A stretch of DNA of 64,000 nt from Alphaproteobacteria bacterium (GTDB lineage: Bacteria; Pseudomonadota; Alphaproteobacteria; Rs-D84), in NCBI GenBank assembly GCA_017463185.1, contig JAFTPS010000013.1:3826-67825 (forward strand), given 5' to 3'. Under the pieces are notes generated by a model. That model saw only the letters and a program-made list of their open reading frames with translations, was not told the origin of the DNA and ran no database searches. Below, one piece after another: positions 39,959-43,687 of this stretch. The translations under genes and the position numbers were made by a program. Positions within the stretch are counted from its first letter, which is position 1. Every line of letters starts with the position of its first letter.

Positions 39959-42900
39959 ATGAAACGTATCAAAATTTTTCTGATTTCATTATTTATGGCG
40001 ACGGCGGCTAACGCAGCTAGCGGTGATTTTATGATGGCGGCGCAATTGTTGGCAGCGGCTAAAAGTGCCGATATTCAGCAGGTGCAAAGCCTGGTCAATA
40101 ATGGGGCGAATATAAATTTTGTGGATTCAACGGGGCTGTCTATTGTTTGTACGGCGTTGATGAACAATGATGTGCGCGCGGCACAAATCTTGCAAATGTA
40201 TGGGGCGGATGCGTCTAGATGCGACAGTCAAATCAAACAGTATAATAAAAAAAATAAATCAAAGGGCAGTGGTGGATTGTTTAGCGGACTGTCGTCTGCC
40301 CAGACCATAAGTTTAGCGGCGGCGGGGGCCGCCGTTGTTGTAGGGGGACTGTTTTTATTGACAGATGTGTTTGATCCGGGTAATGACAACGAATCGGGGA
40401 CGTCTGGTGGAAATCGTCCAGATAATAATAATGGTGGTGGTTCATCTGGGGGGGCAGGAACAGCTTTTGTGACTGTGCCATACAGTCCGGCATATCTGGG
40501 GACTGATGGTAATGTGACGACCAGTGATGCCACATATCAGGCGAATTTATTGGAATGGGACCCTTCTGCGGGCGGTGTGCGCGAGTGGGACTTTAATTAT
40601 TTTCGCCCCACGGTTCAGACAGAAAATAATTATTTGGTGGATGGGATAAAATTACCAATGCAGAACTATTTGCTGATGATGCACGGATACGCTGCGTTTG
40701 CAAATGAATATCTGGGCCAGAAAATATTCCGTAATGAAATAACCAATAATCCTGTATTGGTGGCGAATGACGCCGGTGGTGGCGTGCCGGTGATTGTGGG
40801 ATTGGTGACGGCAAATGGTGTAAATGCGACGGGGGCGGCCGCACGTGGTGATGGAATAGAATACGCAAACAGTGCAGCGGCTGATGCGACGACTTATTTG
40901 CTGGATAAATATTTGAATTATAATAATCCCTCGTCCGGTGTGCTGGGGGCGGAAATTGCGGGTTTTGATTTTTCGGGTTCTGGGACCGCGATGAATCCGT
41001 TCGCGTCTGCATATGACAGTGCGCTGGGGAAAATCGTTGCAGGTTGGAACGCGGGCGGTCGCTCGTACGGTGATTTATTTGGTTTTGTGCCAAATGGTCG
41101 CCTGGGGGTGTACAGAACCGGTGGTGGCACCGAATGGATATCCATTGCTGACCCAACGGCGGGGGGCGCGGTTGGGACCCTGACCGATGTTGATGGCACC
41201 GCCGGCGTGATAGAGGCTGGTGATACAATCACCATAAATGGTATAACATATAATATAGAATCTGCATTGACCGATACCACGGTCGTAAATCCAACTATTA
41301 CGGTCAATGGCACAACATATAAATTGGCGGATGGTACAAATATGTTAAAGGGTGTCTGTACCAGTGATACCGACGGGGCATGTGATGATGTTTCCGATAT
41401 TGCGATTTATGTTGGTGTGGAAAGTGCGGGTAACAGCAAGTATTATTATGTAAATACCACCGGTGGTGACACGGTGGATGCTGTTTATACGGTAGATTCT
41501 AATAATATTTACAAACAAAAAGAATTGGTTGATTCCGATTATAAAAATTTCCAGGCTTTGTATGCGGGACGTTCGGTCAGTAATGTGTTGGCAAATGTTT
41601 CTGTAATAGAACCATCACGTGATGCTAATTATTTGACTGTGAATGAAATGCCGGCTTTATTAGCGTTAAGTTCCGCCAGTGACACCGAAACATTTATGGC
41701 ACAAATAGATTCCGTTTATGACCGCAATAGCGCGGATACTATGACCCAGGGTGCATATGCAAATTCTATGTTTAATGGATATGGGGCGTCTTCTCCAATT
41801 TTGGTTATGCCGGCCGGTGAATTTGAATTTGGCAGTGGGACTGGAAAATCTTTGTCCGTGTTGGATGCTACTTTTGAAAATTATGCACCGGTAATATATG
41901 GGGCAAATTTGGAACATAACTTTATGACCGTGGTTGCGGTTCAGCATTCAGTGGGTACCACGGCGGCTGGTTCAATTGGTGCGTATGGTAATGGAATTGG
42001 GGATAATTATGGGCCACTGTATTTATCTATGTGGACCGATACCCAGGGTACAGATAATACCGACGATGATGTTTTATATTCCGCGCGTAAATGTGGTGTC
42101 GCTGGATTGGGAATAAATGGTATTGACCCGTGGTGTTTTTCCGCCGCCGGTGCGACATCTGAAATGGCCACCGCCAGTGCCGCTGGTGCTGTTGCCGCAC
42201 TGAAAGGCGCGTTTGATTATATGAGTAATAAACAAATATTTTATTTAATGGCCCTGACCGCTGACGGTTGGATGCTGGGGACGGATGACAGTGGCACGGC
42301 ATTTACATCCGATACTTTGGCAAATTATTTACAGGCTATGTATTCTTTGCCACCCGAATATTATGCCGATACACTGGATTCAGAAGCGTATCTGGCCGCC
42401 TTTGCAGAAGTGTATGGTTATGGCCTGATAAATCTGGACCGCGCAATGCGCCCCAATCACAAGGTTTATTATTATAATGGAACGGATATTGTTTCGGCTG
42501 ATGGAAATGCATATTGGCGGGCCGCTTCAAATACGGCATTTCGGTCGTCGTCGGTACTGAATCCACGCGGGGTATCTATTGCGGCACCGTTCTTTGATAT
42601 TTTGGAAAGTGTTGATGGCAAAATGTCTTTGCCACGCGTGTGGGAAAATTCGTTTGCGCTGGGGGCGGCTGATGCGCGGGCGTTATATATGGGTGATGTG
42701 TTGGGCGAACTGACCACGCGTCGCGATACGGCGCGTCGTGTTCAGATCGGAAATATTGGTTTTTCAATGGCTATGTCTGAGCGCGCATATGTTGATAATA
42801 TGAATGGCTTGGATAATATGTCGTTGGATTATCGTATTGGTAATTGGAATTTTGGTGCGTCGTATCAGCATTACTTTACCGATGGGGTATCGCGTTTTAC

Positions 42901-43687
42901 GGGGTTGTCTAATCCTGTGTTGGGATTGGCGACGAATGTTGTGACATCGGACGTGGCATATAACTTTGGTAATTGGACTTTTGGAACGCGGGCGTTTTCT
43001 GGGGCTATAACGGACGAGGGTTTATTAGAAAATGATCCGACTATTTCATCGCAGTATATGCCAGCAAAGTTAGGTTTGATGCAGGGGGCGGAATCTAATG
43101 TTGGGTGGAAAAACGATAAATTTATGTTTTCAGCATCTGTTGGTACGGCTGTGGAATCCGATACCCTGTTGGGGGCGCAAAGTGGTGGCCTGTTAAATCT
43201 GGGGACGGGTGATACGACATATGTTGATGCGTTGGCAAAATATAATGTCGCAGATGATATTACACTGACGGCGCGTGCAACATTTGCGCGCACGGTGTCC
43301 GATGCGTCGGGTGAATTTATTCTGGGGTTGACGGATATAGAATCAAATGCATTTGCTTTGGGGGCCAGTATTGGAAACTTTGATTTTGCCGTGTCGCAAC
43401 CGTTAGCGGTGCATCGCGGGGCATTGCGCTATGCTGCGGCCGACTATGAAATTGTGGATGATTTGAATGGGGGGTACGAATTAAATATTGTTGATACACG
43501 TATTGCGGATTTATCCCTGCGTCCGGAAAGTCGTGAAATGCGGTTTAATATGACTTATCGCCATAATTTTGGTGAATTTACCGATGGGGCAATTGGATTT
43601 ATATATCGCATAAATCCAAACCATACGGATGAATTTGGTAATGAGTCTATATTTATGATGAAATTGACACATAGGCTCGGAATATAA
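39959..43687 (+). CDS. 1242-aa secreted protein: ankyrin repeat(s), subtilase(S8)-like segment, C-terminal autotransporter-like beta-barrel
   Basis: ATG at 39959 gives MKRIKIFLISLFMATAANA. LLAAAKSADIQQVQSLVNNGANINFVDSTGLSIVCTAL..NDVRAAQILQMYGADA is ANK. GATSEMATASAAGAVAAL...VYGYGLINLDRAM resembles the subtilase Ser motif. The last 300 aa or so have an alternating beta-strand pattern. Confidence 0.6.
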   Translation: MKRIKIFLISLFMATAANAASGDFMMAAQLLAAAKSADIQQVQSLVNNGANINFVDSTGLSIVCTALMNNDVRAAQILQMYGADASRCDSQIKQYNKKNKSKGSGGLFSGLSSAQTISLAAAGAAVVVGGLFLLTDVFDPGNDNESGTSGGNRPDNNNGGGSSGGAGTAFVTVPYSPAYLGTDGNVTTSDATYQANLLEWDPSAGGVREWDFNYFRPTVQTENNYLVDGIKLPMQNYLLMMHGYAAFANEYLGQKIFRNEITNNPVLVANDAGGGVPVIVGLVTANGVNATGAAARGDGIEYANSAAADATTYLLDKYLNYNNPSSGVLGAEIAGFDFSGSGTAMNPFASAYDSALGKIVAGWNAGGRSYGDLFGFVPNGRLGVYRTGGGTEWISIADPTAGGAVGTLTDVDGTAGVIEAGDTITINGITYNIESALTDTTVVNPTITVNGTTYKLADGTNMLKGVCTSDTDGACDDVSDIAIYVGVESAGNSKYYYVNTTGGDTVDAVYTVDSNNIYKQKELVDSDYKNFQALYAGRSVSNVLANVSVIEPSRDANYLTVNEMPALLALSSASDTETFMAQIDSVYDRNSADTMTQGAYANSMFNGYGASSPILVMPAGEFEFGSGTGKSLSVLDATFENYAPVIYGANLEHNFMTVVAVQHSVGTTAAGSIGAYGNGIGDNYGPLYLSMWTDTQGTDNTDDDVLYSARKCGVAGLGINGIDPWCFSAAGATSEMATASAAGAVAALKGAFDYMSNKQIFYLMALTADGWMLGTDDSGTAFTSDTLANYLQAMYSLPPEYYADTLDSEAYLAAFAEVYGYGLINLDRAMRPNHKVYYYNGTDIVSADGNAYWRAASNTAFRSSSVLNPRGVSIAAPFFDILESVDGKMSLPRVWENSFALGAADARALYMGDVLGELTTRRDTARRVQIGNIGFSMAMSERAYVDNMNGLDNMSLDYRIGNWNFGASYQHYFTDGVSRFTGLSNPVLGLATNVVTSDVAYNFGNWTFGTRAFSGAITDEGLLENDPTISSQYMPAKLGLMQGAESNVGWKNDKFMFSASVGTAVESDTLLGAQSGGLLNLGTGDTTYVDALAKYNVADDITLTARATFARTVSDASGEFILGLTDIESNAFALGASIGNFDFAVSQPLAVHRGALRYAAADYEIVDDLNGGYELNIVDTRIADLSLRPESREMRFNMTYRHNFGEFTDGAIGFIYRINPNHTDEFGNESIFMMKLTHRLGI

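Follow-up and report, generated by a model that had tools for sequence, protein, structure and literature searches.

A probable pseudo-subtilase with an ankyrin module and a porin-like barrel, conserved in uncultured gut Alphaproteobacteria

The stretch of DNA analysed here (the window) comprises 64,000 nucleotides of an alphaproteobacterium of the lineage Rs-D84 (contig JAFTPS010000013.1 of assembly GCA_017463185.1, positions 3,826 to 67,825). Within it, an unbroken open reading frame runs on the forward strand from the ATG at 39959 to the end of the stop codon at 43687 and encodes 1242 amino acids; the gene is genuine and intact. We consider its product to be, more likely than not, an outer-membrane-anchored pseudo-subtilase: a protein exported by the Sec route, held by a C-terminal barrel, and given to non-catalytic binding or scaffolding. 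The initial annotation, made by eye, had read here a signal peptide, one or more ankyrin repeats, a hydrophobic Gly-rich segment, a large passenger and a C-terminal beta-barrel, and all of these parts were recovered. Its suggestion of a degenerate S8 autotransporter holds in that the passenger is S8-derived and catalytically degenerate and is joined to an outer-membrane barrel; it does not hold for the barrel itself, which is not of the autotransporter family PF03797. The role in adhesion or display that it put forward is putative. All coordinates given below for parts of this gene are on the forward strand.

Direct searches with the protein gave few matches. A Pfam scan recovered the ankyrin part only, and weakly, while a scan of NCBIfam returned nothing meaningful. 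When PDB sequences were searched with the single sequence or with a full-length profile, the matches were swamped by designed ankyrin proteins (DARPins), and a profile of residues 560-905 found zero matches even at E <= 10. Aligned by hhalign to subtilisin BPN', the same residues matched over 12 columns at the C-terminal motif, with a probability of 1.5%. The initial annotation had named the absence of S8 or barrel profile matches as a result that would count against it; taken literally, this is what direct Pfam and PDB-sequence searches returned, and the homology of the passenger to S8 peptidases surfaced only by way of intermediate sequences. Sub-threshold signals were nonetheless present, as Pfam Peptidase_S8 was seen in five of 12 family members (best E = 0.012). 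An AlphaFold2 model of the passenger (residues 173-905), built from a shallow alignment of 24 sequences of 60-70% identity, reached a mean predicted local distance difference test score (pLDDT) of 46. Foldseek comparison of this low-confidence model placed the S8 autotransporters fusolisin (PDB 8axg) and Ssp (PDB 8e7f) on top, and the best 50 structures were mostly subtilisins; none reached E <= 1e-3, and the result is suggestive only.

The intermediates came from an exhaustive hidden Markov model (HMM) search, in which a profile of residues 173-1242 was compared to 1.84 billion representative sequences at E <= 1e-3. This returned 240 proteins. The strong matches belong to the same family as the protein itself; weaker matches, at E = 1e-13 to 1e-6, lie for the most part in the barrel and in some cases take in the last portion of the middle region as well. 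Peptidase_S8 was present in all ten remote matches that were scanned, at E = 1e-12 to 1e-58, and by NCBIfam the nearest to the S8 part of these relatives are EprS, an autotransporter peptidase, and mycosin. Four of the ten (P0203, P0207, P0209 and P0240), distant relatives with an intact triad, also carry N-terminal ankyrin repeats; the combination of ankyrin, S8 and barrel is therefore recurrent and not a one-off. An hhalign comparison of 37 family members with 81 S8-plus-barrel relatives gave a probability of 100% and E = 3e-48 over 690 columns. The alignment covers residues 231-1240, spans the whole Pfam S8 region of the templates and extends into the end of the barrel. On the strength of this alignment the middle region is a diverged S8 domain (residues 231-830; 40649..42448), predicted to be catalytically dead, and the linker and the barrel that follow are homologous as well.

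The same profile alignment supplied the mapping of every catalytic site, and residue counts refer to the 37 family members. A catalytic-triad alignment had been proposed in the initial annotation as a check, and it shows that the full triad is absent: the positions of Asp, His and Ser are occupied by A285, S341 and E735. A285 (40811..40813) lies in VTANGVN, which aligns with ViDtGvD. The equivalent of the Asp motif is VIVGLVTANGVN (residues 278-289), and Ala at the Asp site explains why no convincing Asp motif had been seen by eye; in the family this column holds A17 G7 D3 E3 K2 N2 T2 S1. S341 (40979..40981) takes the His position, with DFSGSGT opposite d...HGT, and is followed by an 11-residue insertion and then by ALGKIVAGW, which corresponds to HVAGIIAA in the templates; the column reads S9 N8 A7 T3 Y3 H2 G2 and others. 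The Asn of the oxyanion hole is replaced by E621 (41819..41821; PAGE opposite AAGN), in a column of E20 D7 A3 G3 and others. The Ser position is E735 (42161..42163; SEMA opposite TSMA), its column reads E20 G4 A3 D3 Q2 S2 and others, and a 15-residue deletion lies immediately on its N-terminal side.

The motifs that had been proposed by eye can be placed on this alignment. The Ser-motif stretch GATSEMATASAAGAVAAL (residues 731-748) had been assigned correctly to the S8 helix GTSmAAPhVSGAvAvL, but the serine of its GATSEM is not the catalytic position, which is E735; most homologs have GPTAEM where this protein has GATSEM. The C-terminal motif YGYGLINL, within VYGYGLINLDRAM (residues 818-830), was likewise well placed and aligns with iYG.GLlNL. 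The suggested His motif QHSVGTT (from residue 662), within QHSVGTTAAGSIGA (residues 662-675), was mistaken: it falls on the S8 strand and loop VvAVD...IasyS, and H663 is kept in just 11 of the 37 members. Neither H242 (MMHGY) nor H663 (AVQHS) can be taken as the catalytic His, given the alignment and their poor conservation.

While these four columns vary, the scaffold does not. G287, G620, C712 and C726 are invariant among the 37 members, and A737 is nearly so. The cysteines C712 and C726 (42092..42136; RKCGVAG...DPWCFSAAG), present in 37 of 37, are inherited from the motif SNrCGvAk.wClaAPG of the S8 relatives. The full set of triad motifs is absent from all representatives of the protein's own family, and matching motifs occur in most of the remote relatives. 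Measured against the S8 family, then, homology of the scaffold is present and the Asp-His-Ser triad and the oxyanion Asn are missing. Because scaffold residues are held constant where the four catalytic columns drift, we read the pattern as the signature of a pseudoenzyme, and on this alignment the domain is classed as a predicted pseudoprotease.

Large insertions further distinguish the scaffold, at about residues 392-530, 551-612 and 765-815. The first of these (41132..41548) is beta-rich, carries an internal TITxNGxTY repeat and the cysteines C467 and C475, and has no counterpart in the S8 relatives. It is modelled mostly as strands (pLDDT about 50-88), and gave weak Pfam matches only, to CBM_5_12 in three of 12 members (best E = 0.013) and to Phage_attach in four of 12. 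The insertion is variable or missing in more distant family members, and the C467/C475 pair is found in a close subgroup.

A linker of residues 831-925 (42449..42733), homologous in the S8-plus-barrel relatives, connects the S8-like domain to the C-terminal barrel. No long pore helix is predicted in it, yet the pLDDT there is below 50. The barrel occupies residues 926-1242 (42734..43684); it has about 14-16 strands, about 16 in the model, and ends with the strand FMMKLTHRLGI. Several comparisons separate it from the autotransporter barrels. PF03797 was not matched by Pfam in the protein or in the ten relatives scanned, and hhalign of 118 family barrels against 20 PF03797 barrels gave a probability of 1.5%. 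An HMM built from the family's barrels alone matched lipoprotein forms, ankyrin forms and proteins of cultured organisms (Tranquillimonas alkanivorans and Sphingomonas immobilis); the database searched comprised just 389 sequences, of which P0209 was matched at 1e-38 and P0283 at 8e-11. The same HMM matched no PF03797 protein. In the exhaustive search described above (1.8 billion sequences), the profile reached the barrel region of S8-plus-barrel relatives at E = 1e-13 to 1e-6. Among the top 50 Foldseek neighbours of the barrel there is no autotransporter translocator-domain structure; the neighbours are porins of 14-16 strands, not autotransporter barrels of 12. Two relatives have weak Pfam matches to OprB. 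A barrel profile searched against PDB sequences found no barrel protein and one spurious match only. The combination that defines type Vd (patatin-like, PlpD)/Omp85 proteins, POTRA domains with a 16-stranded Omp85 barrel, was not found in the protein. The C-terminal fold is a porin-like beta-barrel distinct from PF03797.

The protein opens with MKRIKIFLISLFMATAANA (residues 1-19; 39959..40015), read by eye as a canonical Sec signal with n-, h- and c-regions, followed by AS and with predicted cleavage after ANA at an AxA site. The n-h-c pattern is kept in family members and in remote relatives. About two ankyrin repeats follow (residues 23-90; 40025..40228). The region agrees with the ankyrin-repeat consensus and matches DARPins at E = 8e-17 (phmmer, PDB); in Pfam, Ank_4 scores 20.6 bits (E = 5.6e-4), just under the cut-off of 22.7 bits. 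Its cysteines, C64 and C88, are conserved in 37 of 37 family members.

Next comes a GGLFSGLSSAQ motif with a Gly/Ala-rich hydrophobic stretch (residues 105-135, GGLFSGLSSAQTISLAAAGAAVVVGGLFLLT; 40271..40363), which is nearly invariant in the family: almost all of the 37 members have (L/F)FSGLS(S/T)xQ and, after it, a hydrophobic stretch. By the Kyte-Doolittle scale no 19-mer of the protein is more hydrophobic than one in this segment (2.18), and in this protein the segment is flanked by basic residues on its N-terminal and acidic residues on its C-terminal side. Its approximate Hessa insertion energy is borderline (family median about +0.3 kcal/mol). Conservation of the motif and of the Gly/Ala 19-mer, seen also in P0121-P0167, goes beyond the needs of a simple membrane anchor; in the active relatives, motifs of a related LFS(T) type stand ahead of the hydrophobic segment. 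The motif could, from its sequence, be a recognition or sorting signal, and we know of no signal that resembles it. The segment as a whole is a putative membrane or pore-associated anchor. It gives way to a linker of low complexity and poor conservation, first acidic and then Gly/Asn-rich and flexible (residues 136-172; 40364..40474), at the position of which remote relatives have poly-Gly. An N-terminal extension of the passenger (residues 173-230; 40475..40648; VPYSPAYL...) is conserved in the close family and falls outside the alignment with the S8 relatives.

The remote active relatives present three forms of N-terminus. In the first, found in short proteins, a lipobox L(S/A)GC is followed directly by poly-Gly, for example LSGC-GGGGGG. 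The second has a signal peptide, a Gly/Ala-rich hydrophobic segment and poly-Gly, and the third is like the second but has, in addition, ankyrin repeats that follow the signal peptide and precede the hydrophobic segment. The protein described here has the third form, and its hydrophobic segment therefore sits where the lipid anchor sits in the short relatives. Six cysteines are present in the protein, arranged as three local pairs (C64/C88, C467/C475 and C712/C726), and their position in three different regions suggests that all parts of the chain are extracytoplasmic. For this reason the hydrophobic segment is unlikely to be a stop-transfer helix of the inner membrane.

The gene is widely kept. 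A search for homologs returned 595 matches, of which the best 120 are full-length (1211-1289 residues) and 58-100% identical; nearly all of these 120 are without a precomputed Pfam domain and a few have an ankyrin family. In a scan of one genome per species, relatives were found in 254 genomes. The 80 loci listed of these 254 all belong to 'Candidatus Enterousia' or to other metagenome-assembled genomes of uncultured gut Alphaproteobacteria or Proteobacteria, with identity down to 46%. Enterousia belongs to the order Rs-D84, uncultured gut bacteria with genomes of less than 1 Mb, which are reported to be without a tricarboxylic acid cycle, a respiratory chain and standard nutrient transporters (PMC12306168). 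That paper makes no mention of ankyrin, autotransporters or the outer membrane. In databases the relatives are labelled 'S8 family peptidase' or 'ankyrin repeat domain-containing protein' and nothing more, and a full-text literature search combining ankyrin, subtilase and autotransporter gave nothing relevant, nor a description of the architecture.

The components are thus of known kinds (an S8 scaffold, ankyrin repeats, an outer-membrane barrel), and it is their combination that is new. New as well are a barrel outside PF03797 joined to an S8 passenger, N-terminal anchors that are interchangeable, and complete catalytic decay in a gene conserved across a lineage. The gene is among the largest of the conserved 'hypothetical' genes in Candidatus Enterousia, and the analysis offers a handle on its function; an envelope protein of 1242 residues kept in 254 species genomes is likely to be central to the dealings of these cells with their surroundings or partners. 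It also reveals a wider unannotated family, in which S8 peptidases are combined with a non-PF03797, porin-like barrel and with exchangeable N-terminal anchors, and provides a clean natural case of a protease scaffold turned pseudoenzyme. Were the passenger exposed at the surface, the family would represent a further way to couple a passenger to a barrel, of relevance to type V secretion and to the engineering of surface display.

From these observations we infer an outer-membrane location, a binding role and an N-terminal anchoring role, which together suggest the following mechanism. The Sec signal peptide would direct export. The porin-like barrel of about 14-16 strands would then insert in the outer membrane and hold the rest of the chain. 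The middle region of about 600 residues keeps the S8 scaffold and a disulfide-forming pair of cysteines, having lost the Asp, His, Ser and oxyanion Asn. The 15-residue deletion beside the former nucleophile and the large insertions would remodel the S8 cleft, and the beta-rich module would be inserted in a loop that borders the substrate cleft in subtilisin. With its catalytic residues lost and its cleft remodelled, the domain would therefore no longer cleave peptides; remodelled cleft and inserted module would instead, most probably, form a surface for binding or scaffolding. The two-repeat ankyrin module, the hydrophobic segment and the Gly-rich linker stand where the shorter active relatives have lipobox and poly-Gly, and would most probably serve as a second, N-terminal anchor or tether. 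In origin, the protein would derive from active S8 peptidases of a broader, unnamed family in which the same barrel occurs.

Several observations weigh against this proposal. No curated profile for S8 or for any barrel family reaches threshold on the protein itself. The model of the passenger is poor, so that the sequence alignment alone tells how the former active site is arranged and where the insertions lie. With a Kyte-Doolittle value of 2.18, residues 105-135 are hydrophobic enough for a transmembrane helix; if they halted transfer at the inner membrane, the domains that follow would stay in the cytoplasm, which contradicts the barrel, and the proposed topology is therefore tentative. The final residue is Ile and not the usual aromatic residue of the barrel assembly signal. 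Lastly, among the 24 closest homologs (the Enterousia subgroup) E735 is invariant and E621 nearly so, a point to which we return below.

The orientation of the passenger is the issue on which the foremost alternative turns. In the proposed pseudo-subtilase we favour a passenger exposed at the surface, only slightly, because of the kinship of its S8 domain with autotransporter peptidases and because the lipobox variants recall NalP and SphB1. The protein could instead face the periplasm, the barrel being a porin, a channel or a plain anchor and the S8, ankyrin and hydrophobic parts lying beneath the outer membrane, where they would tether or organise components of the envelope, possibly together with the neighbouring Cys-rich and OmpA-domain proteins. 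We regard this as a credible minority reading. The barrel does resemble ordinary porins of 14-16 strands; it is also like the exopolysaccharide and lipid channels PelB, PgaA, BcsC and FadL, with periplasmic N-terminal domains, and no pore-spanning helix is predicted ahead of it. An ankyrin module with a conserved pair of cysteines after a cleavable signal peptide would be in the periplasm at least transiently, and the divergent cluster that includes the OmpA-domain protein adjoins the gene in 74-76 of 84 loci. On the other side, the S8 domain of the active relatives is closest to surface or secreted autotransporter peptidases (EprS, Ssp, fusolisin), and NalP and SphB1, which are surface subtilases with a lipid anchor, are brought to mind by the succession of lipobox, S8 and barrel. 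Shared gene order is, moreover, a weak sign of a functional link where genomes are very small.

A more speculative elaboration, to which we attach little probability, is that barrel, N-terminal anchor and Gly linker together constitute an unrecognised display system resembling that of autotransporters. An S8 or pseudo-S8 passenger would be presented as a giant surface loop, with the N-terminus in the periplasm and both the Gly linker and the C-terminal linker passing through the lumen of the barrel. The N-terminus may be held by lipid in the short forms and by the ankyrin module with the hydrophobic segment in the protein described here. RcsF threads through porins, and the linker would do so in a comparable manner. 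In Enterousia, what had been a protease would on this view have become a conserved, possibly essential, device for attachment or uptake, serving a bacterium with a very small genome.

The constancy of the two glutamates in the closest homologs raises the possibility of a neo-enzyme, in which a site for catalysis or metal binding would have arisen anew from E735 and E621; this could apply only to the close subgroup. Both positions face the active site in subtilases. Each is Glu in just 20 of the 37 family members, however, the cleft is remodelled by the 15-residue deletion and the large insertions, and no likeness to another enzyme family emerged from the Pfam, NCBIfam and PDB-sequence searches; we judge a neo-enzyme improbable. 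Finally, an ordinary active subtilase autotransporter of type Va, its motifs overlooked by eye, would fit a signal peptide, a passenger and a C-terminal barrel standing in that order, and also the presence of the S8-like Ser-motif helix and C-terminal motif, but it is excluded by the alignment to the point of being scarcely tenable, since four of four catalytic positions are substituted, PF03797 is not matched (hhalign to autotransporter barrels, 1.5%) and the nearest structures are those of porins, not of autotransporter barrels with 12 strands.

Among known systems, the closest counterpart of the proposed pseudo-subtilase is the unnamed S8-plus-barrel family, exemplified by P0209, P0207, P0204, P0304 (Tranquillimonas alkanivorans by source name) and P0378 (Sphingomonas immobilis). 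S8 scaffold, linker and barrel are homologous, and the pair of cysteines flanking the APG motif is common to both. They share one layout, made up of a signal peptide, optional ankyrin repeats, a hydrophobic segment or lipobox, poly-Gly, the S8 domain and the barrel, with the N-terminal anchor and Gly-rich linker represented here by residues 105-172. Unlike the present protein, members of that family retain the D-H-S motifs, and their last residue is usually aromatic; triad and oxyanion Asn lost, the 15-residue deletion, three large insertions and the terminal HRLGI set the present protein apart. Type Va autotransporters (Serratia Ssp/PrtS, Pseudomonas EprS, Fusobacterium fusolisin, Neisseria NalP and Bordetella SphB1) also have an S8 passenger N-terminal to a barrel, and NalP and SphB1, being lipidated surface subtilases, are comparable to the short lipobox relatives. 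They differ in that the barrel described here is not a 12-stranded PF03797 barrel, the passenger is predicted to be catalytically dead and no pore helix is predicted; the passenger-associated repeat PF12951 was not found in the protein. A precedent for the reuse of the fold is the germinant receptor CspC of Clostridioides difficile, in which the subtilase fold is kept, the triad is incomplete or absent and the protein serves binding or signalling; the CspC model of NCBIfam matches the relative P0209 weakly. CspC is, however, a Gram-positive spore protein of an unrelated lineage with neither barrel nor ankyrin, and only the S8 superfamily is common to the two. The barrel shares 6-13% sequence identity with OmpT (V. 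cholerae), OprP, Omp32, OprB and FadL, and general porins lack the N-terminal extension of 900 residues that this protein carries.

The start of the gene and its local signals were also considered. An alternative TTG start at 39794 (1297 amino acids) was rejected because it runs into the end of the upstream gene and into a hairpin at 39866-39885, and because homologs begin at the MK(F/Y)IR signal peptide. That hairpin is terminator-like, follows the upstream gene and precedes a promoter-like site (39907..39935, forward strand) that reads TGGACA-17-TAACAT and has TG ahead of its second hexamer. A second terminator-like hairpin, followed by a T-run, stands directly 3' of the stop codon (43691..43705, forward strand). 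All three were found by consensus scan only, and the matches suggest that the gene is apparently monocistronic.

Three genes on the reverse strand, at 38088-38978 (296 residues), 36167-38065 (632 residues) and 32840-36136 (1098 residues), form a divergent cluster upstream of the barrel gene, encoding secreted, Cys-rich proteins. Only the last has recognisable Pfam families, namely CarbopepD_reg_2 and, at the C-terminus, an OmpA domain. The 296- and 632-residue genes stand beside the homolog of the barrel gene in 76 and 74, respectively, of the 84 loci compared, including the most divergent of those listed (46-52% identity). The cluster may comprise functional partners or may merely reflect conserved order in a very small genome. 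Just upstream, on the forward strand, 39123-39839 encodes a protein of 238 residues. This protein has a hydrophobic segment at the N-terminus, a region resembling a coiled coil, a PTKPTKPTKPCKPCRPAKPTKP repeat with a tandem DNA repeat at 39486-39546, and a tail rich in Asn; it has no Pfam family and is found at 47 related loci. The first of the hairpins above lies 3' of this gene. Just downstream, 43792-44205 (forward strand, 137 residues) has neither signal peptide nor Pfam family and holds the same position in 61 related loci.

Further along the forward strand, 44829-46622 encodes 597 residues with a signal peptide and about ten tandem repeats of roughly 25 residues, IPENLFAGIxGAPxxxMFxxTF. 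There is no Pfam match, the protein occurs in just one other of the loci compared, and it looks like a variable, repeat-containing surface protein. The window has another open reading frame of 597 residues, at 3378-5171; the two were compared as possible paralogs and are unrelated. On the reverse strand, 46646-47725 belongs to the choloylglycine/linear-amide hydrolase (CBAH) family (Pfam E = 2.4e-64) and is, by its sequence, a possible bile-salt hydrolase, notable for a very small gut genome. At 31568-31656 on the forward strand, the Rfam family Alpha_RBS (the ribosome-binding-site leader of the alpha operon) is matched exactly at its gathering threshold of 38.0 bits, a borderline case. Over the window as a whole, cumulative GC skew climbs steadily to about 48-50 kb and then drops; long open reading frames lie mostly on the forward strand before about 46000-52000 and mostly on the reverse strand after it, and this region is a convergence point, possibly the terminus of replication.

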